Assembly: GCA_964384675.1 (NCBI GenBank)
Contig: CAYLNK010000002.1
Span: 1,516 to 65,515, forward strand
DNA length: 64,000 nt
Direction of reading: 5' to 3'
From: an uncultured Holophagales bacterium
GTDB taxonomy: Bacteria > Acidobacteriota > Thermoanaerobaculia > UBA5066
Shown here: positions 7,095-64,000 of the stretch, in pieces
Layout of the letters: the number at the start of each line of letters is the position of its first letter
Numbering within the stretch: the first letter of the stretch is position 1
Program-made: the position numbers and the translations under genes
The notes under the pieces: model-generated
What the model was told of the DNA's origin: nothing
The model's input: the letters and a program-made list of their open reading frames with translations, nothing else
Databases searched by the model: none

Positions 7095-7302
7095 TGGCGT
7101 GTCAGCGAAGAATCCGAAGCGCCTGCCCGGCCCTCGACGCCGATAGCGGCATTGGTGCGCAGACGCTCGGCGAAGATGGAGGAGCCCCTTCAGCCCTCGG
7201 TCTGCGCGCCTGGCTCTCGGCGCCGATCGCCGTCGCATACACCTCGCCTTCCTCGCTGGCGCGCCACTAGAATCCCGTGCGTATCGACCGGAAGGAGAAG
7301 AC

Positions 7303-7590
7303 ATGAAACGTCTCAGCAGCCTCGCCGCCGCCCTGGTCCTGGCGTCCGCCCTGACGGCGTCCGCTCACGATCTGAAGACCGACAGCTTCCAGGTCACCGG
7401 GACCGTCTCCGCCGTCGACGACGGCTCGGTCACCGTGATGAAGGGGAAGGAGCGCTTCCACATCACCCGCGACGCGGCCACGAAGGTCACGGGCGACCTG
7501 AAGGTGGGCGCCAAGGTGACGATCGCGTACAAGATGTACGCGGTCTCGGCCGAGGTGAAGGAAGAGAAGGCCGCCGCGAAGAAGAAGTAG
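7303..7590 (+). CDS. Small secreted protein (95 aa), hypothetical
   Basis: Strong SD (GGAAGGAGAAGACATG). Signal peptide MKRLSSLAAALVLASALTASA with an AxA site. Lys-rich C-terminus. Confidence 0.6.
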   Translation: MKRLSSLAAALVLASALTASAHDLKTDSFQVTGTVSAVDDGSVTVMKGKERFHITRDAATKVTGDLKVGAKVTIAYKMYAVSAEVKEEKAAAKKK

Positions 7591-7635
7591 CGGCTGGCTG
7601 CCGGAGCGGGGGCGCGCTGCCTCCGCTCGTCCGCC

Positions 7636-8718
<1,083 letters not shown>

Positions 8719-8787
8719 GGTGCCGGGGGGCGGCGGCGGGAGGCCGCCGGTGGCACCCGCCCGCGTGGCGGGCGGGTGCTAGGCCGT

Positions 8788-9048
8788 TCAGGCGGGTGTG
8801 GCTTCCGGGGCGGCCGCCGCGGTCTTCTTCTTCGGGGCGCTCGCCGGGGTCCGGTTGGCCCAGCGCTTCTGGAAGCGCTCGACGCGGCCCTCGGTGTCGA
8901 CGAGCTTCGCCTTGCCGGTGAAGAACGGGTGGCAGCTGGAGCAGATCTCGAGCCTCAGCTCGTTCTTCGTGCTGCGGGTCTTCCAGGTGGTGCCGCACGC
9001 ACAGTGCACGCTGACTTCCTGGTACTGCGGGTGGATCTTTTCTTTCAT
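8788..9048 (-). CDS. rpmE: 50S ribosomal protein L31
   Basis: [12 protein letters not shown]..CxCG...[10 protein letters not shown] is canonical for zinc-binding L31. The ATG at 9048 is preceded by GGAGACTCCCTC. The longer ORF track start at 9093 is an upstream in-frame extension. Confidence 0.9.
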
Positions 9049-9147
9049 GAGGGAGTCTCCCGGCCGCGGCCGCTTTGGTAAGCCCCGGCGCAAACCGCGG
9101 ATACTAGCATGGGCCGCCGGCCGCGTCGGCCGGCCCGCGCCGCGGGA

Positions 9148-10554
9148 TCAGGCGGTTCGCTCGGCCCGGCCCGTGAAGGCCACGAACTCGCCGCTCCGTC
9201 CCTCGCGCAGCATGCCGTGCCGCTTGAGCATCTCGTTGAGGGTCGTCGGCTTCAGGCCCAGGAGCTCGGCCGCGCGCTTCTGAACGCCTCCGGCGCGGTT
9301 CATGGCGGCGGCCAGGAGGGAGCGCTCGTACGCCGCGACGGCGTCCTTGAAGTCGAGCCCGTCCGACGGGAGGGTCGCGGGCCGTGGCACCGAGCGGCGC
9401 ACCGCGTCCGGCAGCTGCTCGACGTCGATCACCCCGTGCCCGAGCACGAGGGCGCGCTCCAGGACGTTCTCCAGCTCGCGCACGTTGCCGGGCCAGTCGT
9501 GGTCGAGGAGGGCCTTCATCGCGCCCGGCGTGACCGACGGGATCGGCCGGCCGTTCTCGGCGGCCGCTCGCGCGACCAGCGCCTCGACGAGCAGGGGGAT
9601 GTCCTCCTTCCGGTCGCGCAGGGGCGGAAGGGCGATCGTGATGACACAGAGCCGGTAGTAGAGGTCCTCGCGGAAGCGCCCCTCGGAGACGAGGCGAGGC
9701 AGGTCGGCGTTGGTCGCCGCGATGACGCGCACGTCCGAGCGGATCGACTCCACCGCGCCGACCGGCAGGAACTCGCGTTCCTGGAGCACGCGCAGGAGCT
9801 TGGCCTGCGTCTCCATCGGCACGGTCCCGATCTCGTCGAAGAAGATCGTGCCGCCGTCGGCCACCTTGAAGAGCCCCTTCTTGTCGGAGACAGCGCCCGT
9901 GAAGGAGCCGCGCACGTGTCCGAAGAGGTTCGACTCCAGGAGGTCCGGCGGCAGCGCGCCCGAGTGGACGGTCACGAACGGGCCCGCCGCGCGCGGGGAG
10001 AGCCGGTGGAGCGCCTTGGCGACGAGCTCCTTGCCGGTCCCGCTCTCGCCGATGACGAGGATGGTCGAGCGGGCCGAGGCGGCTTGCCGCACGGTCTCGT
10101 ACACCTTCTCCATCACGGGCGCCCGGCCCACCAGCTCGCGCAGGTCCTTGCCCTCCCCGAGCCGGGCCTTCAGCGCGCGGTTCTCGACGACGAGGCGCCG
10201 CTTCTCGAGCGCCTGCTTGACGACGTGGACGACCTCCTCGTTCCGGAACGGCTTCGGCAGGTAATGGAAGGCGCCCTCACGCATCGCCGCGATCGCGCTC
10301 TCGACGGACGAGTACGCCGTCACCACGACGACGGGCATCTCGGGCCATCGGGCGCGCACCTCGCCGAGCAGCTCGAGCCCCGGGCGGTCCGGGAGCATCA
10401 GGTCGAGCAGCAGGAGGTCGAACGGCTCGCGGGCGAGGCGCTCCAGGCCCTCACCGGCGCTCGCGGCCTCGCGGGTCTTGAAGCCCGCCTTGGCCAGGAC
10501 CGTGCGCAGGACGTCGCGGATGACCGGTTCGTCGTCGAGGATGAGGATGGTCAT
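9148..10554 (-). CDS. Sigma-54-dependent two-component response regulator (NtrC family)
   Basis: REC domain ([10 protein letters not shown]...D54-like [10 protein letters not shown]). AAA+ sigma-54 interaction domain with GESGTGKE and GAFTGA-like GSFTGA. C-terminal Fis-type HTH. Confidence 0.95.
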
Positions 10555-10573
10555 GCCGTGGTCCTCTCGCTGG

Positions 10574-13303: not shown

Positions 13304-13315
13304 GGAAAGTGCCAG
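13300..13315 (-). promoter_or_regulatory. Sigma-54 (-24/-12) promoter upstream of the histidine kinase / response regulator operon
   Basis: Minus strand reads CTGGCACTTTCCTTGCG, which matches TGGCAC-N5-TTGC exactly (GG-N10-GC). It sits directly upstream of the kinase start. Confidence 0.6.
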
Positions 13316-13436
13316 GTATCCGGATCCTTGAATCAGGTCAAATCCCTACAAAATGGGAAGTTATCCCAGAAAGGTCCGGATGTGATCCAAAATGTCGGAT
13401 TAACTCCGAGGAATCTTGGAGGGCCGAGTCCCCGGA

Positions 13437-15311
13437 TCAGAAGGAGAAGGCGAGCCCGCCGGCGAACCGGCGATTGCTTCGCGCCTCGTCCTTGCCTTCC
13501 TGACGGCGGCCGAGCTCGACCGAGAGCAGCGCCCGAAGCTCCGAGCCGAAGCTCCTGAGTGCCGCGATCGGGACCGCTTGGGCGAGGCTGAAGTCGACCG
13601 CCTCGACGTCGTTGCGCAGCCCGTCCCGACCCTGGTGCAGGGTCTGCGTCACGACCCGGTAACCTGCGCCGATCGAGGTGCGGGTCACCGCCACCATCAC
13701 CGAAAAGTCCGCCACCCCGTACGTCGCCTCGTTCTCGTCGATCACGCCGTGGCGGGAGCCGGCAACCCGGCCGCCGCGGGCGGCGATCCGTCCGTCGAGC
13801 CCCGCTCCGAGACGGAACGTCGTGGTGCTCGACAGCTCGGTCGCGACATCGGAGTCGAAGAAGTAGAGGGAGTCGAGGCGGTCCACGAAGTCCCGGTCCA
13901 GGAGCATCCGGTACGTGCCGCCGAGCTCACGCCGCGACACCTCGACCGAGAAGCTTTCGCCGTCCTGGCTGTCGTACCGGATCCCGCCACGGTACGTCGA
14001 GCGGGCGAGGCGGGAGAGATCACCGTCCTCGGTCCCCGCGTACCCGAGCGGGATGCCGTCGAGGAGGCGCCGCTCGAACCGGCGGGAGAGGAAACCGAAC
14101 GCGCGCCAGCCTTCCTCGGTCTTGAGCGTCAGCGTCAGCTCGGGGGTCAGGCCGCGGAGGTGAGTCGAGGTCTCGCCGACGAGTCCACCCTCGAGCACGA
14201 GGTGGGGCAGGACCTCCATTCCGACGGAGCCGCCCATCCGGGTTTCCTGATCCCACGAGCCTGAGGGGGACCGGGTCTCGAGGCCCGTCGTGGTGCGGTA
14301 TCCGACGCTGACGCGGACGAAACGGCCGGCGTCCAGGTCGGTGCGATAGCTCGCGGCGAGCTCGACCGCGTTCGCCGCCCGCGTGAACAGCCCGTCGACC
14401 GGCACGCTGGAGGCGAGGTTCGCCTGGGAGAGAACCCGCGCCGAGACGGACGCGCGGGAGCCGTCCCCCAGAGAGCCGCTCCAGTCGACCCCGTGCGCGG
14501 AGAAGCGGGTGTCGGACGCCCCATCGAGGATCTGACGGCGCGACGAGATCCGGATCGCCTGGTTGTCCGTGGGCGCCACGTCGAGCGCGAGCCGCGAGGC
14601 GTCGCCGAGTCGCGTACCGCCGCTCGAGACACGGCTGTACTCGCCCTCGAGGCCCCAGCGGAAGCGTCCGCCTAGGCTCCCCGACACGTCGAGAGACGTC
14701 CGGGAGAGGTTCGCCGAGCCCTCGGCGCCGAACCCGGTGAGAGACGAGACGGACGCCCGCAAGGGGAGCGACAGGGACGCGCGGGCGAGGGACGACGACG
14801 GAGGGCCGGGCGGGCGAGCCGCGTCCTCGAGCGCCGCCACGACGCCTTCGTCGCGCAGCACGTCACCGGGAGCGAGCGCCCTCGCGATCCAGGGATCCGC
14901 CTCCCCGAGCGGTGTGACGGGAAGGACGCCGCTGGCCTTCTCGAGCTCCACCGAGACGAAGGAGACGGTTTCCCGGCCGGCCCGGTGGAGGATTCGCGTG
15001 ACGACGGGGCGGAAGCCGGGCGCGAAGGACAGGATCGTGTAGAGCCCCGCCGGCGCCCCCGGCAGCACGAAGCTGCCGTCGGACGCGGACCGCAGGACGC
15101 GCACGGTCGCGGCGACTCCGTTCTCGACGCTCCGGATCAGGAGTGTCGCGCCCCCGATGGGAACGCGGCCCACACGCACGATTCCGGCGAGCGGCGCGCC
15201 GGTCGGGACCGAGAGTCCACCGGGAACGGCGAGGGCAATGGCGGGAACCGAGACGGCGAGCAGCACCACCGCGAACCGGAGCCTCGAAGGGATTCGTCGA
15301 TAGCGGCTCAT
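13437..15311 (-). CDS. Outer-membrane beta-barrel protein with N-terminal carboxypeptidase-regulatory-like domain
   Basis: Signal peptide MSRYRRIPSRLRFAVVLLAVSVPAIALA. Alternating-hydrophobic beta-strand pattern throughout. C-terminal aromatic residue (…GGLAFSF). The start is the internal ATG at 15311 because the ORF-track extension has no signal peptide. Confidence 0.6.
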   Translation of the reverse strand: MSRYRRIPSRLRFAVVLLAVSVPAIALAVPGGLSVPTGAPLAGIVRVGRVPIGGATLLIRSVENGVAATVRVLRSASDGSFVLPGAPAGLYTILSFAPGFRPVVTRILHRAGRETVSFVSVELEKASGVLPVTPLGEADPWIARALAPGDVLRDEGVVAALEDAARPPGPPSSSLARASLSLPLRASVSSLTGFGAEGSANLSRTSLDVSGSLGGRFRWGLEGEYSRVSSGGTRLGDASRLALDVAPTDNQAIRISSRRQILDGASDTRFSAHGVDWSGSLGDGSRASVSARVLSQANLASSVPVDGLFTRAANAVELAASYRTDLDAGRFVRVSVGYRTTTGLETRSPSGSWDQETRMGGSVGMEVLPHLVLEGGLVGETSTHLRGLTPELTLTLKTEEGWRAFGFLSRRFERRLLDGIPLGYAGTEDGDLSRLARSTYRGGIRYDSQDGESFSVEVSRRELGGTYRMLLDRDFVDRLDSLYFFDSDVATELSSTTTFRLGAGLDGRIAARGGRVAGSRHGVIDENEATYGVADFSVMVAVTRTSIGAGYRVVTQTLHQGRDGLRNDVEAVDFSLAQAVPIAALRSFGSELRALLSVELGRRQEGKDEARSNRRFAGGLAFSF

Positions 15312-53062: not shown

Positions 53063-56000
53063 TCAGAATCCGAGGCTCGCCTGCTGCGGCGGCCCCGGCG
53101 GGGCGAGCACCAGGACGCGGGGGCTGGCCGTGCTGTTGTCGATCACCGTGAGCGCCCCGACCACGAAGCCGGGCTCGTCGCCGATGGGCTCCAGCGACAT
53201 CGCCACGCGGTCGATCGAGGCCGATCCGATCCCGAATCCGCCCTCGCCGTTCCAGATGTCGTTGATCTGCACCCGCTGCCACGGGTCGAGGAGCCGCTCG
53301 ATCTCGGCGAGGACGCCTCCGGTGGTCCCGTTCACGACGCGGAGCCGCACGCGGGCCTTCTGGCCGCTCACCTCGGCGAGGATCAGGTTCGTCCGGATCC
53401 CGGCGTACTTCTGGAGGCCCGGGTACGTCGTCACCGGGGTGCGGGCCTTGCCTACGGCCTCGGGCGAGAACGCGGTGTAGCTCTGGAACTCGGCCCCCTT
53501 CGTGCCGCGGGAGGGGTTGCCGACCTCGACCGGGGTCGTGACCGAGGCGCGGGCGACGACGCGCCCGATGCCCTCGCCCTCGATCCGGAGCGGGCCCGCG
53601 GTGTTCACGTCGTCCGGCAGGCCGAACAGGTTCTTCACGACGTCCTGGCCCTTGGCGGCCGGCAGGGAGCCGCGCGGGGGAAGCGTCAGCGAGACGCGAG
53701 CGGTGCCGGAGACGTCGCCCACGTAGTCGTAGATGAAGGTCAGCGCGGCCGGCGATGCCGAGCCGTTCGTGACCGAGAGCTCGGTCGTGAAGAACGTGCC
53801 CGAGCCGCCGCGGCTGTGGACGATCGACGGGATGACCCGCGGCGAAGGGGGCGTGGCGAGCGGAGCCGCCGGGACCCGGGTCGCGGTCGTCTCGGCGGGT
53901 CTGAAGCGTCCCGAGAGCGCCTGGAAGCTGGCCGAGAAGTTGTCGATCAGCGTTCCGATCGCGGTGACGCGCCCGCCCCCCGAGATCGGCTCCACGAGGA
54001 GGGAGGCGGCCTCCACCGCGCCGGAAACCCCCAGCCGTTCCAGGAGCGGGAACTGGGTGTTGCCCGACGCGGGAACGTCGACCTCGGCCGAGCCCAGGTC
54101 CGCCCCGTCGCTCCCGACGAGGCGCAGCCGGACGCGCGCCGCGGTGCCGAGCGTCTCGGCCAGGATGATGTTGAGGCGGAACCGGTCGGACACCTTGATG
54201 CCGGTCAGGAGGAGGGGCGAGAGGCCGGCGCCGGTGCCGCTGCCGGAGCCGTAGACCGGGATCTCCGTGCCGTAGCGCGACGAGACGTCGCCGGTCCCCG
54301 GCAGGCCCGACGCCGTGGTGCGCAGCGAGAGCTGCGCGAAGCTCTTCGAGCGGATCTCGACGTGGGCGGCGAGGTCGGTGGTGCCGAAGAGACCCTGGAT
54401 GAAGTCGTAGAGCCGTACCGTGGCGAAACCGGGAATCGCCTGGGTCACCTTCGTGGCGGAGACCTGCCCGTCCTGCCCCGACGGAGACGCGTAGACGTCG
54501 AACGACACCGGGTCGGGCGAGAGGTTGCGGAGCCAGCCGTCGGACGTGAACACGGTGCCGCCGGCGCCTTCCTTGTGGACGCTCGTCGGCACGATGAAGG
54601 ACGCCTCACCGGGGGCGAGGAAGCCGCGGCCGTTGCCGACGACGACGTCGTTCTCCAGGGAGTAGAAGACCTTCACCTGCGCGAGGTCGCCGCCGTCGCC
54701 GCCGGCCGGCGTGAGCGAGAGGACCGTCCAGATCGGGAGAGGGTAGTCGGCCGGCGTGATCCGGGACGGGTCGGCCGAGAGCCTGATGTCGCGCGACGCC
54801 CCGGGCGCCAGCTCGGCCGCGAAGTCGGCGGGGTCGAGGCGGAGCCACGCGCCGCCCGGGCCTATGGACGGGACGAGGAAGATCGGCGAGGAGCCCGGGT
54901 TCGTCACACGCACGGTCTGGATCGGCGCGGCGAGCGGGACGCGGCCCGCCGTCCGGGCGTCGACGATGAGGAGCTCGTCCTGGTCGAGGCGCGGGCGGAT
55001 GCCGGTCGAGCGCGTTCCGGTGACGGTGAGGAACACCTCGGCCGATGCCGAGCCTTGCGGGTAGTCGGCGACCAGGCTGCCGCGCTTCGTGCCGGCGCTG
55101 CCGACAGCGGCGGGAAGCGTGTTCAGCGTGACGGTGACCTCCTGCCCGGCGGCCAGGTTGGCGCTCGAGGGGGAGAACGTGAAGATCGAGTCGGGGGTGC
55201 GGAACGTCACCGAGGCGGAGCTGCCGCCGACGTTCCGGAACCTCACGGTCGCGGCGGGCGGAAGCTCGCCCACCCTCACGGTCCACGCGGGCTCGGCCTC
55301 CTGGGAGACGACGAGGGACGGCGGATTCGGGGCGACGTTGATCGGCACGACGCGCGAGAAGCCGCTCTCCTGTCCGCAGCCGGCGATCGCCGAGACCCGG
55401 AAGAAGAGCGTCCCGTTGGTGGTGGCCGCGGTCGGGTAGGAGAGCGCGAGGTTCCGCGTCCGGATCTCGGTGAGGATCGACCCGGCGCCGAAGTCCGCCG
55501 AGGACGCCAGCTGGGTCCGGTACGTCCCGTCGGCGTCGGTCGGTCCGTAGACGTCGGTCCAGGAGACCGTGAACGAGTCGCCGGCGCGCACGAGGCCCTC
55601 GGGCGCGGAGACGACGTCCGGGGGCGAGGGCGGGCAGGCGGCCACGTTGGGCAGTACGACCGTGTCGAGGACGCTCTGGTCGTTGGTGGGGTTCGGGTCG
55701 GGCTCGGTCGCCTTCACCGAGACGCGGTTGACGAGCGTCGTCGGCTCGGGCGGCGCGGAGACGAACAGCGTCACGGTCCTCGACGTGCCGGCCGGGATCG
55801 TCCCGAGGCCGCAGGTGATCGGGGCCGTTCCGGTGCAGGTGCCGAGGCTCGGCGTCACCGAGATCGGCGAAACCCCGGCGGGCAGGGTCTCGGTGAGGGT
55901 GACGTTCGTCGCCGGCGCCGGGCCGTTGTTCTGGATGAAGAGCGTGTAGGTGAGGAGACGCGTGGCACGGGCCGGACTGGGCGACGCGCTCTGGAACACA

Positions 56001-58798
56001 CCGAGGTCGGCGGAGCCGGGCGGTGCGACGCGCGTCGTCGACGCCGCGGAGTTGTCGTCCAGGCTCGGGTCCGGCTCGAGCGCGCTGATGCGGGCGCGGT
56101 TGGTGATCTGGGGCGCGGCACCGGCGGTGACCGTGGCGGCGATCGAGAGCGTCACGTCCTGTCCCGGCACCAGGGTGCCGAGCGCGCAGAGGATCGGCGC
56201 CGTGCCGGTGCACGAGCCCTGCCCGGAGGTCGCCGAGACGAGCGTCAGGCCGGCCGGGAGGGTGTCGGCGACGACGGCTCCCGTCGCGGTCGTCGGACCG
56301 TTGTTGCGAGCCGTCAGGACGTACGTGATCCGCTGGCCCGGGATCACCGGATCGGGCGAGGCGGTCGAGCTCAGGCGCAGGTCCGCGAGCCTGTCCGTGA
56401 CCGTGACCGTGGCCGTGAAGCTGTCGGTGGCGCCGCAGCCATCGGAGACGCGCACCCAGTAGCCGGTGGTCACGGACAGCGGCGGGGTCGTGAGGCTGTA
56501 CGACGCGGCGCCCGCGACCGGCCGTCCGGTGTCGCCGCTCGCCCCCTCGTACCACTGGTAGCGGAGCGTCCCCGTCCCCGCGATCGCCGCCACCTCGAGG
56601 ACCGCCGCCGTCCCGGTCAGGACGATGGGGCTCGCGGGCTGCTGCGTGATGGTGGGCAGCGCGCAGCCGCCGATCGCGACGCGCCGGATCCGGTGGTTGA
56701 ACGAGTCGGCGATGAAGATCGAGCCGTCGGAGCCGACGGCGACGCTGCCCGGGCCGTTCAGCTTCGCGGCCGTCGCGGTGCCGCCGTCCCCGGAGAAGCC
56801 CTCCTGGTAGTACGGGTTGCCGCTCCCGGCGACGGTGCCGATCACTCCGGTCGAGGCCGAGATGCGGCGGACGCGGTGGGCGTCGGCGATCAGGAGGTTC
56901 CCGGCGGCGTCGAGCGCGGCGTTCCCGATCGGACCGTTCAGCCGCGCCAGCGTCGCGGTCCCACCGTCGCCGAAGCCGTCGGTGGGGTCGCCGCCGCCGG
57001 CGATCGTCGCGATGGTGCCGTTCGCGGCGACCATCCGGAGCCGGCCGTTGCCGGAGTCGGTGATGATCACGGTGCCGTCGGGCATCGCGAGGACGCCGCT
57101 CGGGACGTTGAGCCGGGCCGAGGTGGCGGGGCCGCCGTCGCCCGAGAACGCCCCGTTCTCGTTCCCGACCGGCCCGCTGCCCGCGACCGTGGAGATGGTT
57201 CCGTCGAGGGCGACCCGGCGGATCCGCTGGTTGTCCCGATCGGCGATGTAGACGACGCCGTTCGCCGCGACGGAGGCGGCGACCGGGTAGTTCAGCTGCG
57301 CGGACGTGGCGGGGCCTCCGTCGCCCAGCTTGTCCTCCGGGGTCCCGCCCCCCGCGATCCGGGCGATCTTCCCGCTCGCCGCGTCGACCTTGAAGACCAT
57401 GCCGTTGAAGCCGTCGACGATGTAGAGGTTCTTCGCGGCGTCGAGCGCCACGCCCCGCGGGAAGCCGATCGCGGCCTCCGTCGCGGGGAGGCTGGCCGCC
57501 GTGTCGAAGTAGTAGCCGCCGTTGCCGGCGGCGGTGGAGACGACGCCCTGGGAGACCTTCCGCACGCGCTGGTCGATGTAGTCCGCGACGTAGAACGTGC
57601 CGTCCGTGCCGAGCGCGATCCCGCGCGGCTCGCGCAGGATCGCCCGGGTGGCGGGCCCTCCGTCGCCCAGGTACTTTCCCGCGCCCGCGACGGTCGAGAC
57701 GAGGGTGGTGGCGGCGTCCACCTTGCGCACGTCGCCGTCCGAGACGTAGAGGTTCCCGGCGGCGTCGAAGGCGAGGCCGTACGGCGCGCGCAGTCCGGCC
57801 TCGACCGCGGGCTTGCCGTCCCCGCCGCCGTACGAGCCGTCCCCGAAGACCGTGGTGATGGTCCCGGTCACCGTGTCGATCCGGCGGATCCGGCCGTGGT
57901 AGCGGTCCGCGACGTGGAGGTACCGGCCCGAGGCGTCGAACGCGAGGAAGGAGGGGACGCGGAAGGTGGCTTGCGTGGCGGGCCCGCCGTCGCCGATCGG
58001 GGGCTCGAAGCTGCCGGTCCCGGCGATCGTGGTGATGGTACGCGTCGCGGCGTCCACGCGCCGGATCCGGTTGTTTCCGGCGTCTGCGATGTAGAGGTTG
58101 CCGGCCGGGTCCAGCGCGAGACCGTACGGGCTGTCCAGCGCGGCCTGCGTCGCCGGCCCGCCATCCCCGGAGAACCCCTGTGTGCCGTTCCCCGCGACGG
58201 TCTCGATCAGACCCGTCGACAGCGTCACCTTCCGGACCCGGTGCTGGTTGTACGCGGTGTCCGTGACGTAGAGGTTGCCGTCCTTGTCCAGGGCGAGCCC
58301 GTTCGGGGAGCCGAGCCCGGCTGATGTCGCGGGACCGCCGTCTCCGACCCCGTCCTGCGGGGAGCCCCCGCCCGCCACGGTGCGGATCTGTCCGGTGGCC
58401 GCGTCGATTCGCCGCACCCGGCCTTCGCCGTTGCTGGAGACGTAGACGTTGCCCGCCTTGTCGATGGCGAGACCGAGGGGCGTGCGGATGGTCGCGCTCG
58501 TCGCCGGGCCGCCGTCCCCGCCGCTGCCGCCGCCGCCGTTCCCGGCGACGTTCCTGACGAGGCCCGTCGCGGCGTCGATCCGGGAGACCCGGTTCGACGC
58601 GTCCTCGGCGATGTAGACGTTCCCGGCGGCGTCGACGGCCAGGCCGGTGGCCGCGTAGAGCCCGACCGTGGTCGCGGGCTGGCCGTCGTTCGAGCCGCCG
58701 CCGGCGATCGTCTGGATCGGCTGGGCAGCGAGCGGAGCGGCCAGGAGCGCGAGGAAGACGGGGATCGAAGCGCGAAGCGCTGCCGGGAGAGTACGCAT
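53063..58798 (-). CDS. Giant secreted NHL-repeat / DUF11-domain surface protein (1911 aa)
   Basis: Start at the ATG at 58798 (SD GAGGTGAGG, signal peptide MRTLPAALRASIPVFLALLAAPLAAQ). More than 25 NHL-type beta-propeller blades (…AGNLYIAD…NRIRRVD…). Then 3-4 DUF11 conserved-repeat domains (ADTLPAGLTLVSATSGQGSCTG…) and a long C-terminal region. The upstream ATG at 58831 uses rare codons. Confidence 0.75.
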   Translation of the reverse strand: MRTLPAALRASIPVFLALLAAPLAAQPIQTIAGGGSNDGQPATTVGLYAATGLAVDAAGNVYIAEDASNRVSRIDAATGLVRNVAGNGGGGSGGDGGPATSATIRTPLGLAIDKAGNVYVSSNGEGRVRRIDAATGQIRTVAGGGSPQDGVGDGGPATSAGLGSPNGLALDKDGNLYVTDTAYNQHRVRKVTLSTGLIETVAGNGTQGFSGDGGPATQAALDSPYGLALDPAGNLYIADAGNNRIRRVDAATRTITTIAGTGSFEPPIGDGGPATQATFRVPSFLAFDASGRYLHVADRYHGRIRRIDTVTGTITTVFGDGSYGGGDGKPAVEAGLRAPYGLAFDAAGNLYVSDGDVRKVDAATTLVSTVAGAGKYLGDGGPATRAILREPRGIALGTDGTFYVADYIDQRVRKVSQGVVSTAAGNGGYYFDTAASLPATEAAIGFPRGVALDAAKNLYIVDGFNGMVFKVDAASGKIARIAGGGTPEDKLGDGGPATSAQLNYPVAASVAANGVVYIADRDNQRIRRVALDGTISTVAGSGPVGNENGAFSGDGGPATSARLNVPSGVLAMPDGTVIITDSGNGRLRMVAANGTIATIAGGGDPTDGFGDGGTATLARLNGPIGNAALDAAGNLLIADAHRVRRISASTGVIGTVAGSGNPYYQEGFSGDGGTATAAKLNGPGSVAVGSDGSIFIADSFNHRIRRVAIGGCALPTITQQPASPIVLTGTAAVLEVAAIAGTGTLRYQWYEGASGDTGRPVAGAASYSLTTPPLSVTTGYWVRVSDGCGATDSFTATVTVTDRLADLRLSSTASPDPVIPGQRITYVLTARNNGPTTATGAVVADTLPAGLTLVSATSGQGSCTGTAPILCALGTLVPGQDVTLSIAATVTAGAAPQITNRARISALEPDPSLDDNSAASTTRVAPPGSADLGVFQSASPSPARATRLLTYTLFIQNNGPAPATNVTLTETLPAGVSPISVTPSLGTCTGTAPITCGLGTIPAGTSRTVTLFVSAPPEPTTLVNRVSVKATEPDPNPTNDQSVLDTVVLPNVAACPPSPPDVVSAPEGLVRAGDSFTVSWTDVYGPTDADGTYRTQLASSADFGAGSILTEIRTRNLALSYPTAATTNGTLFFRVSAIAGCGQESGFSRVVPINVAPNPPSLVVSQEAEPAWTVRVGELPPAATVRFRNVGGSSASVTFRTPDSIFTFSPSSANLAAGQEVTVTLNTLPAAVGSAGTKRGSLVADYPQGSASAEVFLTVTGTRSTGIRPRLDQDELLIVDARTAGRVPLAAPIQTVRVTNPGSSPIFLVPSIGPGGAWLRLDPADFAAELAPGASRDIRLSADPSRITPADYPLPIWTVLSLTPAGGDGGDLAQVKVFYSLENDVVVGNGRGFLAPGEASFIVPTSVHKEGAGGTVFTSDGWLRNLSPDPVSFDVYASPSGQDGQVSATKVTQAIPGFATVRLYDFIQGLFGTTDLAAHVEIRSKSFAQLSLRTTASGLPGTGDVSSRYGTEIPVYGSGSGTGAGLSPLLLTGIKVSDRFRLNIILAETLGTAARVRLRLVGSDGADLGSAEVDVPASGNTQFPLLERLGVSGAVEAASLLVEPISGGGRVTAIGTLIDNFSASFQALSGRFRPAETTATRVPAAPLATPPSPRVIPSIVHSRGGSGTFFTTELSVTNGSASPAALTFIYDYVGDVSGTARVSLTLPPRGSLPAAKGQDVVKNLFGLPDDVNTAGPLRIEGEGIGRVVARASVTTPVEVGNPSRGTKGAEFQSYTAFSPEAVGKARTPVTTYPGLQKYAGIRTNLILAEVSGQKARVRLRVVNGTTGGVLAEIERLLDPWQRVQINDIWNGEGGFGIGSASIDRVAMSLEPIGDEPGFVVGALTVIDNSTASPRVLVLAPPGPPQQASLGF

Positions 58799-58853
58799 GG
58801 CGAACCTCACCTCTAAGTGTAGGTGTCTCACGGCGGACGCGCTGTGAGGGGTC

Positions 58854-60203
58854 TCACCGGGTCTCCGCCTCCCCCCAGGCCCCGACGGCGTCTTCGACGT
58901 GCCCGAGGCTCCTCATGCCGAGGAGGACGACGGCGACTCCGTCCGTCCCGGCGAGGCCGCGAAGGACGCGCTGCGACAGCGTCCTGCCCGGGACGGGACC
59001 GAAGGCGTCCGCGACGAGCCGATCGAGAGCCGCCCGCCGGAGGCCTTCCCCGGCCAGGGCCGGGACGATCGCCTGCGTCGCCGCGGCATGCACCGCCGCG
59101 GTGTAGCGCTCGGCGAACTCGTGGAACGCCTCGTCTCCGGCGAAGGCCTCCGCGAGCTGGGGAAGCGTCTCCTCGAGGCGCGGCGCGATCTCACGGGCGA
59201 AGACGCGGCCCACGTGGATCAGGTCGCGCGCGTCGCGCTCGATTCCCCGGAGGACCGCTCGCGAGGCCAGGAGGTCGTCGGTCGACGCGCCCAGCCGGAG
59301 GAGCGGCGCCCACACGCGTGCGAACTCGGTCTCCGCGGACTCCAGCCTCTCCCAGCCGTCTTCGGGGACGGGATGGACGGGTACGAACGGTGGCCGGGCA
59401 TCGACGAAGCGGCCCGCCCCCGACTGGAGCGGGCGGTTGACGAGGACGTGGAGCCCGGCGGCGCGGGCCACGTCGAGGACGCTACGTCCGTCGCGGGTGT
59501 GGATCGAGTCCCGGGCGCCGAGCTCCGCCGGGTTCATCGGGAGCTGGATCGCGCGGAACCGCGGCCCCGCGACGGACAGGACGCGGGCGAGGTCCACCGC
59601 GCGCGCCTCTCCGCGCGCCAGGACGAGGCCGTTCGAGGAGATGCCGTAGGCCGTGATTCGCCCGGCGTCGGCCTCGTGCTCCAGATGCTCGAAGGCGAGC
59701 CCCAGCCGGGCATAGAAGGCGTCGAGCGCCGCGTCTGCGCCGTGCGAGGGGATGCCCTCGAGGAGGCCCTCGGGGTTGTGGAGGAGGTAGAGATCGACGC
59801 GCTCCTTGCGGAGCCGGGAGAGAGAGGACGAGAGCCGGTCCCCCAGGAACCCGGGCGCGACGCAATATCGGAGTCCTCCGCGTCCCTCGTGGACGTCCCC
59901 CGCCCATCTCGCGCCGGCTGGCTCCCGACCCTTCACGTACCCCGCCTTCGTCACGAGCACGACGTCACGCGCGCCGGTCTCGGCGAGCACCTCCCCGACG
60001 AGCGTCTCGGCGCGCCCGCCGCCGTACGTGGCGGCGGTGTCGATCAGATTGAGGCCGGCCTCGAGGGCTGCCCGAAGAGCTTCCCGGTGAGCCGCGATCC
60101 GGTCGTCCAGCTGGCTGGTCCCGACCCCGACCCGCGAGACGCGGTCGGAGAGCGGAGGGAGAGGTGTGAACGCATTTTCGGAAAGTCGAAGGCGATCCGT
60201 CAT
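58854..60203 (-). CDS. Aldo/keto reductase family oxidoreductase with C-terminal extension
   Basis: AKR N-terminal pattern (VGVGTSQL…LIDTAATYGGGRAE…DVVLVTKAG…). Start taken as the internal ATG at 60203 (MTDRLRLSEN). The ORF-track upstream extension is low-complexity. Confidence 0.65.
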   Translation of the reverse strand: MTDRLRLSENAFTPLPPLSDRVSRVGVGTSQLDDRIAAHREALRAALEAGLNLIDTAATYGGGRAETLVGEVLAETGARDVVLVTKAGYVKGREPAGARWAGDVHEGRGGLRYCVAPGFLGDRLSSSLSRLRKERVDLYLLHNPEGLLEGIPSHGADAALDAFYARLGLAFEHLEHEADAGRITAYGISSNGLVLARGEARAVDLARVLSVAGPRFRAIQLPMNPAELGARDSIHTRDGRSVLDVARAAGLHVLVNRPLQSGAGRFVDARPPFVPVHPVPEDGWERLESAETEFARVWAPLLRLGASTDDLLASRAVLRGIERDARDLIHVGRVFAREIAPRLEETLPQLAEAFAGDEAFHEFAERYTAAVHAAATQAIVPALAGEGLRRAALDRLVADAFGPVPGRTLSQRVLRGLAGTDGVAVVLLGMRSLGHVEDAVGAWGEAETR

Positions 60204-60341
60204 TTCCGGCGGGCCCGCACGGCCGCCGCGACGACGGAGCGAGTCGCCGCGAGACTTCCCGCCTGGTTTCCGGTTGACATGGTTTTCGACCCCCGGATAT
60301 AAGACTACTCTCGGTCTCAACTGGGATAGGAGGAGGAGAGT

Positions 60342-60821
60342 TTGATGCTACCGAAGGCTAGGGTGGAGGGGCTGGTGCTCCGGACCGTCGGGCAGGACCT
60401 CGTCATCTACGACAAGGCCGCCGACAAGAGCCACACGCTCAACGAGACGGCGGCCCTGATTTTCAGGGCGTGCGACGGCACGCGAGGCGTGGCGGAGCTG
60501 GCAGCCCTTCTGCCCGAGGGCGGCGAGGCTTCCGAGCGCGAGTCGCTCGTCTGGTCGGCGATCGCTCAGCTCAACCGGGGCGACCTCCTCGTCGAGAAGG
60601 TCGCGGTCCCGGGCGAAATGAACCGGCGCGAGAGCTTCGCGAAGCTCGCCGCCGCGGTGGCCCTGCCCGTCGTCCTGTCGATGCTGGCTCCCAAGAAGGC
60701 CCAGGCCGTCAGCGGCGACCAGGCGGACGGTGCGCAGGGGAACGACGGGGGCTTGATCATCACGGACGACTCCACGTTCGACGACCCGATCGTCATCGAC
60801 CCGGATCCGATCGACCCCTAG
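60342..60821 (+). CDS. PqqD-family (RiPP recognition element-like) protein with C-terminal hydrophobic segment and Asp/Pro-rich tail
   Basis: Strong SD AGGAGGAGGAGA. Residues about 1-90 follow the PqqD pattern (EGLVLRTVGQDLVIYDKAADKSHTLNETAALIFRACDGTRGVAELAALL). Next comes a signal-peptide-like stretch MNRRESFAKLAAAVALPVVLSMLAPKKAQA. The tail is VSGDQADGAQGNDGGLIITDDSTFDDPIVIDPDPIDP. Confidence 0.65.
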   Translation: MMLPKARVEGLVLRTVGQDLVIYDKAADKSHTLNETAALIFRACDGTRGVAELAALLPEGGEASERESLVWSAIAQLNRGDLLVEKVAVPGEMNRRESFAKLAAAVALPVVLSMLAPKKAQAVSGDQADGAQGNDGGLIITDDSTFDDPIVIDPDPIDP

Positions 60822-60845
60822 GGCTCCGCGAACCGCGCCGACGAG

Positions 60846-60878
60846 CTGGGGCCGCCTTCGGGCGGCTCCTTTCGTTCG
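60846..60878 (+). terminator. Candidate terminator/attenuator hairpin
   Basis: GGGGCCGCC-ttcg-GGCGGCTCC followed by TTTCGTTCG. The T-tract is weak. Confidence 0.3.
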
Positions 60879-60943
60879 ATGCGGCCGCGGGGCGTCCGCT
60901 CGTCTTTCGGGCATCATCCGGCACGGGGGAGGGGACGCGAGGG

Positions 60944-62233
60944 GTGGAGCGAGCCGTACCGAAGCGAGGGAGCATCGACTGGCTGATCCAACCGGTCGAG
61001 AAGACGACCTTCTTCTCCGAGTACTGGGAGACGAGACCGCTGCTCGTCCACCGGGAGGCGCCGGGTCATCTCGACGGGCTCCTCACCATCGCCGACGTCG
61101 ACGAGCTGATCGGCTCGGGCCGCGTCGCGTATCCGACGCTGCGGCTCGTTCGCCAGGGGGTCGAGACGCCTCCCGGTGACTACGAGGTCGAATTCCGGAA
61201 CACCTCCGGTGTCGAACGGCTCGCGGACCCGGGAAAGGTGGCGGACCACTTCCGGAACGGCGGCACGGTTTCCTTGAACCAGGTCCACCGGGTCTTCGCC
61301 GGCGTCGCCGACCTGTGCGCCCGTCTCGAGGGCGACCTCTCGCACACGGTCGAGTCGAACCTCTATCTGACGCCGCCCCACGCCCAGGGCGCGCCGTCCC
61401 ACTACGACGTCGTCGACGTCTTCGTCCTTCAGGTGGAGGGTCGAAAGACCTGGCGGGTCTACGAGGACCCGCCCGTTCCGCTCCCTCTTCCGACCGACCG
61501 AGCCCAGCGCGGCGCGGATCCGGGGCGCGCCGCGACGCTGCTGTTCGAGACGGAGCTGCATCGCGGGGACGTCCTGTACCTCCCTCGCGGCTGGGTGCAC
61601 GAGGCGCGGACGACCAGCGAGACGTCCCTGCACCTCACGGTCGTGGTCGACGTCCTGCGGTACGCGGATCTCGCGAGGATGCTGCTCGAGGACGCGTCGC
61701 GCTCGGGCGGCGGCCTGCGTCGGGCGCTTCCGCCCGGGTTCCTCGGGCCGGCGGCCGGCGTCGACGTGATGCGACGCGAGCTGGCGTCGCTCCTCGACGC
61801 GGCCCTCGACCCCGAGGCGCTGACCTCGGTCGTCCGCCGGCTCCGCCAGAAGCGTCGCTCCGCTCCGCGCTTCCTCATCGGGGGCCGCTTGCTGCAGGCC
61901 GAGGCCGCCGAGCGCGCGACGCCGGTGACGCCTGTCCGGCGGCGAGACGGCCTGCCCCTCGAGATCGAGGCCTCGGACCCGGGAATCACGCTTCACTTCG
62001 CGGGGCGCTCCGTGGAGCTGCCGTCCTTCGCGCAGCCCGTGCTCGACCTGACCCTTTCGGATCGCGCCTTCCGCGCGGTCGACGCCGAGCCGCGGCTCGA
62101 CGCCGGGACCGCGCTGACGCTGCTCCGCTCGCTGGTGCGCGAAGGGGTCCTGGTGATCGACCTCGCCACGGAGCCGCCCGATGGCGCCGGCGCCTCCCGT
62201 TCGCGGTCCTCGACGAGCTCGACGAACCCTTGA
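60944..62233 (+). CDS. JmjC/cupin-4 domain Fe(II)/2-oxoglutarate-dependent oxygenase (RoxA/YcfD-like), paralog 1
   Basis: GTG start with an upstream GGGAGGG. Motif NLYLTPPHAQGAPSHYDVVDVFVLQVEGRKTWRVY with HxD…H iron ligands (HYD, …LPRGWVHEA). C-terminal winged-helix-like region. Confidence 0.75.
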   Translation: MERAVPKRGSIDWLIQPVEKTTFFSEYWETRPLLVHREAPGHLDGLLTIADVDELIGSGRVAYPTLRLVRQGVETPPGDYEVEFRNTSGVERLADPGKVADHFRNGGTVSLNQVHRVFAGVADLCARLEGDLSHTVESNLYLTPPHAQGAPSHYDVVDVFVLQVEGRKTWRVYEDPPVPLPLPTDRAQRGADPGRAATLLFETELHRGDVLYLPRGWVHEARTTSETSLHLTVVVDVLRYADLARMLLEDASRSGGGLRRALPPGFLGPAAGVDVMRRELASLLDAALDPEALTSVVRRLRQKRRSAPRFLIGGRLLQAEAAERATPVTPVRRRDGLPLEIEASDPGITLHFAGRSVELPSFAQPVLDLTLSDRAFRAVDAEPRLDAGTALTLLRSLVREGVLVIDLATEPPDGAGASRSRSSTSSTNP

Positions 62234-62243
62234 GATCCGCGCC

Positions 62244-63113
62244 GTGTCGACGTCCGTGACGCCGCCCTTTCTCGAAGCGGGAGTGGTCGAGGCCTTCGGC
62301 GTGCGGCTCGGCGTGCGCTCGACCGAGCCGGGGACCCTGGAGAAGGTCGAATCGCGGCTTCCCGAGGACCTGACGTTCGTCCCGCACGACGTGGCGTTCT
62401 CCGGGGTCGAGCTCGACGGCACTCTCTCCCTCGTGGTGGACGGCGGCGCGCGGGTTCTCCTCGGCCAGGAGACGGTCGCGCTCGCCGAAGACCCGGCCGC
62501 CGGTGTCGACCGGCTGGTGCCCGAGATCCAGCTCTTCCTCCACGAGTTCGCGAGGACCCACGCCGTCGTGCACGCGGGCGTCGTGGGGGTCCGCGGCGAG
62601 GCGGTGGTCCTGCCGGGGCGCTCGTTCGCGGGGAAGAGCGCGCTCGTGGCGGCCCTGGTCGCCGCCGGCGCGACGTACTACTCGGACGAGCTGGCGGTCT
62701 TCGACGAGCACGGCCGGGTGCACCCGTTCCGCCGTCCCCTCGGCCTCCGGCTCGAGCCGGGCCGCCCCCGGGCTCACGTCCCCGTCGAGGAGCTGGGCGG
62801 CCGGGCCGGGCAGGAGCCCCTGCCGCTGGGACTGGTGCTGGTGACGCGCTACGTCCCGGGCGCGCCGTTCGCGCCGAAGCCGATGCAGCGGTCCGAAGCG
62901 TACCGGTCGCTCGTCCGGCACGCGATCGGCCTTCGCCGCCGTCCGGACCTGGTGACCTCGATCCTGAGCCGCGCCGTCGCCGGGGCTCATTGCTGGGCGA
63001 GCAAGCGCGGCGAGGCCGCGCCGGTCGCCGAGTTCCTGATGCAGCAGGCGCCGAGCACGCGGTTCCCCGTGCCGCGGTACGGCGCGATCCGTTTCGTGGA
63101 GCGACCCCGATGA
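62244..63113 (+). CDS. HPr kinase/phosphorylase C-terminal-domain-like P-loop protein (HprK-related kinase)
   Basis: P-loop GRSFAGKSALVAALVAAGATYYSDELAVF matches the HprK catalytic-domain Walker A context. An alternative ATG at 62181 would overlap the JmjC gene by 53 nt. The next gene overlaps its stop (ATGA). Confidence 0.6.
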   Translation: MSTSVTPPFLEAGVVEAFGVRLGVRSTEPGTLEKVESRLPEDLTFVPHDVAFSGVELDGTLSLVVDGGARVLLGQETVALAEDPAAGVDRLVPEIQLFLHEFARTHAVVHAGVVGVRGEAVVLPGRSFAGKSALVAALVAAGATYYSDELAVFDEHGRVHPFRRPLGLRLEPGRPRAHVPVEELGGRAGQEPLPLGLVLVTRYVPGAPFAPKPMQRSEAYRSLVRHAIGLRRRPDLVTSILSRAVAGAHCWASKRGEAAPVAEFLMQQAPSTRFPVPRYGAIRFVERPR

Positions 63114-64000
63114 CACGACGCACGTTCGATCTCGCCTGGCTCCTCTCCCCGGTGGAGGAGTCGGTCTTTCGCGCCGAGCACTGGGAGCGCCGGCCGCTCC
63201 TCGTCCGCCGCGAGGACCGCCGCTACTTCGACGGGCTCCTCTCCTTCGACGACGTGGACCACCTCCTCGGCGCGGGCTGGCTCGCGAAGTCCAGGATCCG
63301 GCTCCTGCGCGACGGGGACGAGCTGAAGGCCGAGACTTTCCACCACTCCTTCCGCGACGGCGAGGCGGTCGCCAACCCGGACAAGATCGCCTCCCACTAC
63401 CTGTCCGGCGGGACGATCGCGGTGAACCAGCTCCACCTCTCGTGGCCGCCGCTCGCCGAGCTGTGCGCCAAGCTGGAAGCGATCTTCTCGCAGCGCGTGC
63501 AGACGAACATCTACTTCACGCCACCCGAGGGGCAGGGCTTCAACGCTCACTTCGACACGCACGACGTCTTCGTCCTGCAGGTCGCGGGGCGGAAGACGTG
63601 GCGCGTCTACGACCGTCCGCCGGTGGAGCTGCCGCTCGTCGAGCAGAGCTGGAAGCGGACGGACGGTCCGACGCCGCCGCACGAGACGCTCCTGTTCGAG
63701 ACCGAGCTCTGCACCGGCGATCTCCTCTACCTGCCCCGGGGCTACGTACACGAGGCGCACACGAGCTCGGAGCTGTCGCTCCACCTGACCGTCGGCGTCA
63801 TCGCGCTCACCTACGCCGACCTGGCCAAGAAGGCGATCGACCTCCTGGCGCGGCGGGACGTGCGGTTCCGGAGGACGCCGCCGATCGGCTTCCTCAACGG
63901 CGGCGAGGCGCTCGAGGGCGCGGCGGCGGCCCTCGCCGAGCTCGCCCCGGAGATCGGGAAGCCGGAGACGGTCGGCGCGGTCGTGGCGCGCCTCGAGGAG
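63110..64000 (+). CDS. JmjC/cupin-4 domain Fe(II)/2OG oxygenase, paralog 2 (partial, continues past window end)
   Basis: Translation from the ATG at 63110 is MTRRTFDLAWLLSPVEESVFRAEHWERRPLLV…NIYFTPPEGQGFNAHFDTHDVFVLQVAGRKTWRVY…LPRGYVHEAHT, about 45% identical to paralog 1. There is no stop in the window, hence it is absent from the ORF track. Confidence 0.75.
   Translation, partial: MTRRTFDLAWLLSPVEESVFRAEHWERRPLLVRREDRRYFDGLLSFDDVDHLLGAGWLAKSRIRLLRDGDELKAETFHHSFRDGEAVANPDKIASHYLSGGTIAVNQLHLSWPPLAELCAKLEAIFSQRVQTNIYFTPPEGQGFNAHFDTHDVFVLQVAGRKTWRVYDRPPVELPLVEQSWKRTDGPTPPHETLLFETELCTGDLLYLPRGYVHEAHTSSELSLHLTVGVIALTYADLAKKAIDLLARRDVRFRRTPPIGFLNGGEALEGAAAALAELAPEIGKPETVGAVVARLEE

Follow-up and report, generated by a model that had tools for sequence, protein, structure and literature searches.

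What does a peptide-modification operon modify when no separate precursor gene can be found in it? The question is raised by four genes at the end of a 64,000-nucleotide stretch of DNA (the window, in what follows) from an uncultured Holophagales bacterium of the Acidobacteriota (contig CAYLNK010000002.1). The listing of open reading frames (ORFs) and a reading of the sequence gave, all on the + strand, gene A (a PqqD-type protein), JmjC-A, a P-loop protein (called the kinase below, for its distant likeness to HprK) and JmjC-B. The window stops within the operon, inside JmjC-B. A first-pass annotation of this DNA had described four co-directional and tightly linked genes with an ATGA overlap, in a cluster that leaves the window, and this was confirmed. 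Gene A and JmjC-A are separated by 122 nucleotides, JmjC-A and the kinase gene by 10, and the ATGA overlap joins the kinase stop to the JmjC-B start. The annotation had also seen in these genes a cluster of the kind that makes peptides synthesized by the ribosome and modified after translation (RiPPs), built on a PqqD-type RiPP recognition element (RRE), and the gene content supports this reading. It had left the substrate to a precursor not yet seen downstream. Our analysis points instead to gene A, the PqqD protein, whose own C-terminal tail is the most likely substrate.

We retrieved the source contig by an exact-sequence look-up of gene A (JGI Ga0310361_1503179, 82 kb, L001 below; five near-identical contigs also matched). 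In L001 JmjC-B is complete (12766-13980, 404 residues). Only 7 nucleotides past its stop starts a PF14907 (NTP_transf_5) protein of 398 residues (L001 13987-15183, 2.4e-35), and after it comes an SGNH/GDSL-like protein, also of 398 residues. The order of the six genes is gene A, JmjC-A, HprK-like kinase, JmjC-B, PF14907 nucleotidyltransferase and SGNH-like, the last two being off the window. The nucleotidyltransferase had been reported as lacking, which was an effect of the window edge. In a sister lineage (L093) the order gene A, JmjC, kinase, JmjC, PF14907 is unchanged, with identities to the window of 87% for the kinase, 87% for gene A and 69% for JmjC-A; the SGNH-like gene is truncated there. 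The extended contig had been expected to reveal a precursor, an exporter and a protease; it gave the PF14907 and SGNH-like genes and no separate gene of these three kinds. Specifically, among the called genes of L001 there is no lasso B2 protease, lasso cyclase or ABC exporter within 10 kb, as the annotation had already stated for the first two. Neither the gene list of L001 nor that of L093 contains a B2 transglutaminase-like leader peptidase or an Asn-synthetase-like cyclase, and the called genes for 10 kb on each side in both contigs contain no Pfam family of a SipW-like signal peptidase I or an MsbA-like exporter. As to a separate precursor, the L001 ORFs showed no leader motif of linear polyphosphorylated peptides (LPPs) or lasso peptides and no small Asp- or Cys-rich ORF in the operon. 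The lone small ORF found in it has 35 residues and overlaps the JmjC-A start.

Gene A consists of three parts. Its N-terminal domain matches Pfam PqqD over residues 20-58 (26.5 bits for a cutoff of 23.4), and TIGR04353 (PqqD_rel_X) at 5.2e-4, with 20.9 bits against a curated cutoff of 35. In the AlphaFold model three strands (residues 10-15, 18-23 and 28-32) are followed by three helices (34-42, 49-53 and 62-78), with predicted local distance difference test (pLDDT) values of 82-92 over residues 1-90; the remainder, including the tail, is disordered. The best match among PDB structures was the lasso RRE TbiB1 (template modeling score 0.77, root-mean-square deviation 2.5 A), then came lasso B1 and PqqD. 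By the Pfam cutoff and the predicted fold this domain is a PqqD/RRE, as the annotation had it for the first gene, with a putative role in leader-peptide binding. The second part contains all the elements of a twin-arginine translocation (Tat) signal, namely the S/T-R-R-x-F-L-K motif, hydrophobic region, basic c-region and AxA, in the form NRRESFAK / LAAAVALPVVLSMLAP / KKAQA. The third part is the tail, rich in Asp and Pro, free of Cys and with the Asp-rich stretch DDPIVIDPDPIDP. Between the window and L093 the tail differs by 8 synonymous and 5 conservative changes and its GC content at third codon positions is 0.95, a pattern indicating that it is translated and under purifying selection. Besides, a hairpin ending in a T-rich tail comes right after gene A (fold z-score -3.15) and is kept in L093 though its flanks diverge. 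It may be a partial terminator raising the ratio of precursor to enzyme mRNA. Partial terminators come after precursor genes in bacteriocin operons, and for this resemblance we have counted the hairpin toward gene A as the precursor.

We drew 62 distinct proteins of this kind (RRE-tail proteins) from the kinase loci described below; a few are truncated or have no clear RR motif. The common architecture is an RRE of about 90 residues, the RR motif, a hydrophobic stretch, an AxA-type site and a variable tail. The motif reads [STN]RR[EQD][VML][ILMV][RK][KR] and the hydrophobic stretch follows it. At the cleavage-type site, A, V or S stands at -3, and 180 out of 194 proteins have A at -1. The tails have between 20 and 100 residues and are hypervariable, with no sequence conservation. 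The RR motif fits the twin-arginine consensus and the small-x-small site that of signal peptidase I, the internal position being the one mismatch, and a hypervariable peptide after a conserved cleavage-type site has the typical look of a RiPP core. The family is large: in an exhaustive profile search, E <= 1e-30 was reached by 1,593 cluster representatives and E <= 1e-10 by 5,907. At least four cysteines were found in the tails of 146 of the 159 best members (e.g., ATCxPSGxxCTxSAQCCSGVCxxxxCA), which would be consistent with export and disulfide formation. Among these 159, a complete acidic tail without Cys was found only in the window protein and its sister. Some genomes have extra RRE-tail paralogues 4-5 kb away (L029, L037, L054).

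The P-loop protein had been annotated as HPr-kinase-like, and what was found is a weak and distant likeness. NCBIfam HprK_rel_A (TIGR04352) matches it at 2.7e-14 but with 53 bits for a cutoff of 200, hpr-ser (TIGR00679) at 2.7e-4 and Pfam Hpr_kinase_C at 0.065. The likeness is confined to the P-loop region (residues 90-170), where the Walker A motif is found. Of the three profiles expected to match the cluster, PqqD and JmjC_2 scored above their cutoffs and Hpr_kinase_C below. There are more than 749 full-length homologues of the P-loop protein, at about 40% identity. A scan of one genome per species gave at least 520 relatives, and we inspected the best 80 loci, taking their gene content from profile searches on six-frame ORFs. 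These loci span Acidobacteriota (many Pyrinomonadaceae, Blastocatellia), Gemmatimonadota, Cyanobacteria, Armatimonadota, Planctomycetota, Methylomirabilis and Nitrospinota. A PF14907 gene stands beside the kinase in 70 of the 80 and a PqqD protein in 48. The usual order, found in dozens of genomes with near-zero spacing, is kinase, PqqD protein, PF14907, and each of the three neighborhoods first viewed had these genes, with a PqqD protein of 165-182 residues. JmjC was found in none of the 80. The kinase homologues score 54-58 bits against the HPr-rel-A models, and none of the triad proteins reach the NCBIfam cutoffs. By these scores, the kinase-RRE-PF14907 family is related to the HPr-rel-A system but distinct, and has no name. 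The canonical triads are too compact for a further precursor gene and the window operon has no other small ORF that is a candidate, and for these reasons we have taken the tail as the substrate, in place of the precursor that the annotation had sought downstream.

The triads are not uniform. In about one third of the kinase loci, mostly from Pyrinomonadaceae (L013, L014, L018, L027 9959-11953 and about 25 others), kinase and PF14907 are adjacent and no RRE-tail gene is beside them; the substrate gene may be elsewhere in the genome. In several triads the RRE-tail and PF14907 genes are separated by a gene for a recurrent protein of 383-399 residues with the motif FAFPDGV(Y/F)xYVCAECTALCC(R/K)G(D/H)GFGGSLE (L007 7162-8310, L022 11556-12704, L029 11476-12639, L037 11529-12725). 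The L007 copy, the one scanned, had no Pfam or NCBIfam match, and the protein may be another tailoring enzyme for Cys-rich tails. Other accessory genes within triads are found in Richelia sinica, for a membrane protein of MauE plus thioredoxin-like type (L019 12154-13065), and in L058, for a PMT_2-type membrane glycosyltransferase (11521-12984). Both act outside the cytoplasm and fit the modification of an exported peptide. As to location, accessory clusters are not usually found where L007 has two tandem kinase/RRE-tail/PF14907 triads (5533-12612), flanked in a 4.8-Mb genome by rpoC on one side and by the ribosomal operon rpsL-rpsG-fusA-tuf on the other. The siting is the same in L008, where one triad copy is broken by a transposase. 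The kinase cluster of L009 is found amid Wzy and glycosyltransferase genes.

The two paralogous JmjC oxygenases of the first-pass annotation were clearly recovered. JmjC-A and JmjC-B match JmjC_2 at 1.7e-26 and 2.8e-27 (92.7 and 95.2 bits for a cutoff of 22) and are 45% identical to each other over their full length. The identity to any outside homologue is at most about 40% (30-40% for the full-length homologues of JmjC-A). That they are closer to each other than to outsiders suggests a duplication within the window lineage. For JmjC-A the true start is the GTG at 60944, and the start at 60470 given by the long ORF was rejected. The iron triad HxD...H of JmjC-A (H153, D155 and H219) is invariant in an alignment of 39 homologues. 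Its model (pLDDT 90.8) can be fitted over the full length, about 450 columns, to NO66, MINA53 and YcfD, with a Foldseek E of 8e-29 to NO66, and the closest solved structures of these enzymes are ribosomal oxygenases. By its model JmjC-A has the architecture of the JmjC_2/ribosomal oxygenase family. Characterized ribosomal oxygenases hydroxylate C3 of His or Arg in proteins. By analogy, the chemistry to be expected is C3 hydroxylation of a polypeptide residue. JmjC enzymes are known in RiPP pathways, as BipG (PMC12707348) and CzlI (PMC11575548). Asp beta-hydroxylation in RiPPs has been described for other families of enzymes, with SmaO (PMC12186529) and, as cited in PMC12636437, with CinX and CanE. 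We also considered the C-terminal domain of the JmjC enzymes as an RRE, and rejected it. In the model of JmjC-A this part has strands and then three helices, and RRE-like folds fused to PF08007 domains have been reported (PMC12710340). The profile-profile comparison with RREs was not significant (probability 0.6%, 13 columns), and what speaks for an RRE-like view is the order of secondary structure and the remark in that paper.

In a metagenome scan for relatives of the JmjC enzymes we found more than 560, of which 80 loci were kept and four further loci added. Kinase, PF14907 and RRE-tail protein were in none of these 84. Instead, in 45 of the 74 loci with enough upstream sequence, a co-directional Asp-rich ORF (at least 15% Asp in the last 40 residues) ended at or just before the JmjC start, against a background of 1.9% of all ORF segments. 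When a conserved N-terminal motif was counted too, an Asp-rich ORF was found directly upstream in 48 of 72 JmjC loci; of the 25 that resemble the window enzyme most, 23 had one. These ORFs are of two types, both with the motif TL(T/R/S)D(D/E)(E/Q)I. One has 50-80 residues and runs such as DADGTDGDADGTDSD after the motif; the other has 110-140 residues, with RRSFL and a hydrophobic stretch (twin-arginine-like) and then DPDK-type repeats. Examples of this widespread two-gene module, among loci L094-L177, are L096 5826-5987, L106 5524-5898, L176 2766-2999 and L177 2747-3001, the last two from cultured organisms, Kineococcus sp. R86509 and Actinoplanes cyaneus. Asp is what these JmjC-linked peptides and the window tail have in common, which makes it the likeliest target, and its hydroxylation the likeliest chemistry of the JmjC pair. 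Among the residues proposed in the annotation (Asp, Asn, Pro or Arg) the choice is thus narrowed to Asp as the best candidate. The window tail segment LIITDDST was examined as a possible TLTDDEI leader motif and rejected, since with a matrix made from 32 leaders the window protein scores -5.2, a value easily reached by shuffles, and true members score 19.7 or more.

The Cys-free acidic tail and the JmjC genes coincide, both being found only in the window lineage (among the 159 best RRE-tail proteins and the best 80 kinase loci, respectively). In the neighborhood comparison proposed with the annotation, the gene order was kept in the sister lineage and JmjC was in none of the 80 kinase loci. 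The locus is best read as a hybrid. It would belong to a large undescribed family of RRE-signal-peptide precursors served by a kinase and a nucleotidyltransferase, in a lineage where the usual Cys-rich core was replaced by an Asp/Pro-rich one and where a JmjC gene, now duplicated, was acquired from a second large and undescribed family.

What we have observed, from gene content and operon structure to folds, motifs shared by the family and co-occurrence statistics, can be put together in a composite model, which we judge somewhat likelier to be right than wrong. The six-gene operon would modify and export the acidic tail of gene A itself, gene A being at once adaptor and substrate. In the cytoplasm, the N-terminal RRE of gene A would recruit the tailoring enzymes to its own C-terminal tail. 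The kinase would phosphorylate a Ser or Thr of gene A, the best candidate being Ser123, two residues past the AxA site, a position where about two in three family members have Ser or Thr. The nucleotidyltransferase would then elaborate the phosphate, a step also proposed for LPPs and for lasso peptides of the paeninodin type, and the two JmjC enzymes would hydroxylate residues of the Asp/Pro-rich tail, with C3 of Asp as the likeliest site. The twin-arginine segment would bring the tail, now modified, through the membrane; as Tat-type export takes place after translation, a prior modification in the cytoplasm is possible. In the last step a signal peptidase would cut after AQA, freeing a polyanionic peptide of 37 residues with Val122 as its N-terminus. 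The enzymatic steps, the export route, the cleavage and a metal-binding role of the product are what we infer from the sequences. Seen in its most far-reaching form, this would be a novel RiPP architecture, with a Tat signal as leader and the RRE in cis, with phosphorylation, nucleotidylation and poly-hydroxylation of Asp by JmjC enzymes before Tat export and release by signal peptidase, and with a phosphorylated beta-hydroxy-Asp-rich peptide as the product, e.g., a metal or calcium binder. The window would then fuse two large undescribed families, the RRE-signal-Cys-rich peptides and the JmjC plus Asp-rich peptides. We consider this form possible but rather doubtful.

There are previously described systems with similar components. 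The closest characterized relative of the kinase-RRE-NTP transferase triad is the LPP clusters of Bacillota (Popov et al., Nat Commun 2026, PMC13381572). They are built on an HprK-like kinase and an NTP transferase, the other core genes being those for a discrete RRE, SipW-like signal peptidase, MsbA-like exporter and separate precursor. The kinase, LppK, places between one and four phosphates on Ser3 of the core, near the signal-peptidase-type cleavage site, the peptidase requires the RRE, and the final product is not known (PMC13381572). The window shares with LPP clusters the HprK-like kinase, the PF14907-type NTP transferase, the PqqD-type RRE, a variable core and the absence of lasso cyclase and B2 protease. 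A Ser near a signal-peptidase-type site is also common to both, phosphorylated in LPPs and a candidate here, and LPP clusters are often near polysaccharide genes. The differences are equally clear. LPP clusters have a free RRE and a separate precursor with the leader YxxPxVLxHQxIxFETxxS (found in no L001 ORF), besides the SipW-like peptidase and the MsbA-like exporter. In the window, the RRE is fused through a twin-arginine-type signal to the presumed precursor, two JmjC enzymes are added and the kinase is only distantly HprK-like. It appears that a general export signal fused to the RRE replaces the LPP peptidase, exporter and free precursor. The earlier claim that no such system was known must be divided accordingly. 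The combination with JmjC is indeed rare, as the 80 kinase loci and the 84 JmjC loci had none, but kinase, RRE and NTP transferase without lasso genes have been described as LPP (PMC13381572).

Similar comparisons can be made with other systems. Lasso clusters of the paeninodin/pseudomycoidin type also have an HprK-like kinase with a PF14907-type transferase and a PqqD-type RRE, and the RRE fold of gene A best matches lasso B1; they differ in having the B2 peptidase, Asn-synthetase-like cyclase and ABC exporter that the window lacks within 10 kb, and the tail has no lasso-type leader. The HPr-rel-A system (TIGR04352 kinase, TIGR04353 PqqD_rel_X) has the same three-gene logic and gives the best-scoring named models, but the window proteins are below both curated cutoffs (53 vs 200 and 20.9 vs 35 bits) and the 74 positions of the TIGR04353 model are the length of the RRE domain alone. 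With NO66, MINA53 and YcfD/RoxA the JmjC enzymes share the JmjC domain with its HxD...H triad, the helical dimerization region and the C-terminal winged-helix-like domain. The identity is only 17-23%, however, the window has two paralogues in a peptide-modification operon and their relatives are paired with Asp-rich ORFs, a genomic context that argues for a peptide rather than a ribosomal protein as the probable substrate. In borosins the core is fused to its own enzyme and is thus in cis on the protein directing the modification. The core would be carried in cis here too, the cis partner being an RRE and not an enzyme. In bufferins, whose paper is cited in PMC12710340, a Sec signal peptide serves as the RiPP leader. 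Here also an export signal would be the leader, but of twin-arginine type and internal. In the literature, as far as open-access papers go and absence not being proof, we found a description neither of the RRE-signal-tail fusion nor of the pairing of JmjC with Asp-rich peptides. The arrangement in the window combines two gene modules that are each widespread.

Several points weigh against the modification and export of the tail as described above. The functions of both families are predicted from sequence throughout, and the inspected loci are the best 80 of more than 520 kinase matches and the best 80 of more than 560 JmjC matches. The likeness to HprK is weak and distant, the profile of the kinase family found no HprK in PDB even at E = 10, and the kinase activity is an assumption. 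Ser or Thr at +2 was found in 128 of the 194 proteins and is thus not universal. The homologous transferase LppN was inactive in a heterologous host in the sole experimental study (PMC13381572). The window tail has no leader motif of the TLTDDEI type seen in the peptides beside other JmjC relatives, so recognition by the JmjC enzymes must differ here, and they are perhaps recruited through the cis RRE. Finally, the Tat-like segment starts at residue 93, behind a folded RRE of about 90 residues, which is unusual for a signal normally found at the N-terminus, and the hydrophobic segment could simply be a membrane anchor.

Two alternatives take the hydrophobic segment as an anchor. Gene A might be a free RRE chaperone, with an anchor as its C-terminal part, that presents to the kinase and hydroxylases a separate precursor encoded elsewhere. 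Lasso and LPP clusters as a rule have a discrete PqqD-type RRE (PMC13381572), the third of kinase loci with no adjacent RRE-tail gene indicates that components can be encoded apart, and in some genomes extra RRE-tail paralogues are a few kb off. We consider it unlikely, as the operon shows no small ORF that is Asp- or Cys-rich or carries a leader motif of LPP or lasso type, the canonical triads leave no space for a separate precursor, and an anchor needs neither an AxA site nor a hypervariable tail whose Cys-rich or acidic character changes along with the accessory enzymes. Also improbable is an uncleaved, membrane-tethered scaffold, in which gene A would hold kinase, transferase and oxygenases for another target, an exported protein or an envelope glycan, the tail being a periplasmic spacer or ligand. 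The JmjC_2-type enzymes of known substrate act on protein residues and not on glycans, the stand-alone JmjC relatives are paired with Asp-rich peptides, and the kept -3/-1 AxA pattern favors cleavage. A hydrophobic segment behind a folded domain would nevertheless fit an anchor with its N-terminus inside, related clusters are found in polysaccharide loci (L009) and LPP clusters in capsule loci (PMC13381572), and in the window lineage an SGNH-like gene comes after the operon, with Acyl_transf_3 and HTTM genes nearby in both lineages.

A third alternative concerns the oxygenases. The JmjC pair could be housekeeping hydroxylases of ribosomal proteins, of the YcfD/RoxA type, inserted by chance in an ordinary triad, as might be argued from the solved structures nearest to them and from the database label "ribosomal protein L16 Arg81 hydroxylase" on some homologues. 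We find it very improbable. Little identity is seen with Escherichia coli YcfD (E = 1.6e-6 across about 75 residues), the paralogues flank the kinase at a 10-nucleotide gap on one side and an ATGA overlap on the other, an arrangement kept in the sister lineage, 23 of the 25 nearest relatives are paired with Asp-rich peptides, and the presence of JmjC coincides with the only acidic tail of the family. Modification of the tail of gene A is the reading that we prefer. The coordinates of the features are collected in the table.

Table. Features of the operon within the window (positions in the window).
Feature	Position	Strand	Basis
Shine-Dalgarno-like GGAGGAGGAGAG	60330..60341	+	read from sequence; 3-4 nucleotides 5' of the gene A ATG (60345)
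Gene A, 158 residues	60345-60821	+	Pfam PqqD match
Gene A residues 1-92, PqqD-type RRE	60345..60620	+	Pfam PqqD, model, PDB matches
Gene A residues 93-121, putative internal twin-arginine-type signal/membrane segment NRRESFAK-LAAAVALPVVLSMLAP-KKAQA, AxA signal-peptidase motif at end	60621..60707	+	family-wide motif
Gene A residues 122-158 + stop, acidic tail VSGDQADGAQGNDGGLIITDDSTFDDPIVIDPDPIDP, proposed core peptide/substrate	60708..60821	+	hypervariable region; Cys-free
Terminator-like hairpin GGGGCCGCC-TTCG-GGCGGCTCC, then TTTCGTTCGA	60848..60879	+	terminator scan; directly 3' of gene A
JmjC-A, 429 residues, predicted ribosomal-oxygenase-type Fe(II)/2-oxoglutarate hydroxylase	60944-62233	+	JmjC_2 match
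P-loop protein, 289 residues, putative distant HprK kinase-domain relative	62244-63113	+	HprK_rel_A match; Walker A GRSFAGKS
JmjC-B, JmjC-A paralogue	63110..64000, cut by window end	+	JmjC_2 match; full 404 residues would end at about 64324

The surroundings of the operon were also compared between both lineages. Upstream, and divergent from gene A, there is an aldo-keto reductase of 449 residues (58854-60203, - strand). It was rejected as a member of the cluster, since it is not found at that position in L093, where one sits downstream instead; the different placement suggests a local rearrangement. Before it, on the - strand (53063-58831), is the gene of a giant protein, predicted to be secreted and about 1,911-1,922 residues long, in which NHL/TEN_NHL repeats occur with CLIPPER and Ig-like domains. 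The sister lineage has kept it, beside an FtsH gene and an extracytoplasmic function (ECF) sigma/anti-sigma pair. The region 3' of the operon corresponds to L001 15195-18930 (equivalent to about 65539-69274 of the window numbering, off the window) and L093 14717-20332. The SGNH/GDSL-like protein there has an N-terminal hydrophobic segment containing RR, and convergent to its gene, on the opposite strand, are HTTM-domain (SdpB/vitamin-K carboxylase-like) and Acyl_transf_3 genes, kept in both lineages.

If the proposed reading is true, a function would be given to a large orphan group, the about 1,600 cluster representatives (at E <= 1e-30) of "too long" PqqD proteins in which there is no second domain. 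They would represent a new precursor design, in which one polypeptide is precursor, recognition element and export signal, and which would escape genome-mining tools made to find small precursor genes on their own. Ribosomal-oxygenase-type JmjC enzymes and their Asp-rich peptide partners would be a second unexplored family, directly testable in cultured actinomycetes (Kineococcus, Actinoplanes cyaneus). The acidic tail would provide a simple and defined substrate for an LPP-type kinase and nucleotidyltransferase pair, and hydroxy-Asp-rich peptides would also be interesting for metal chelation.

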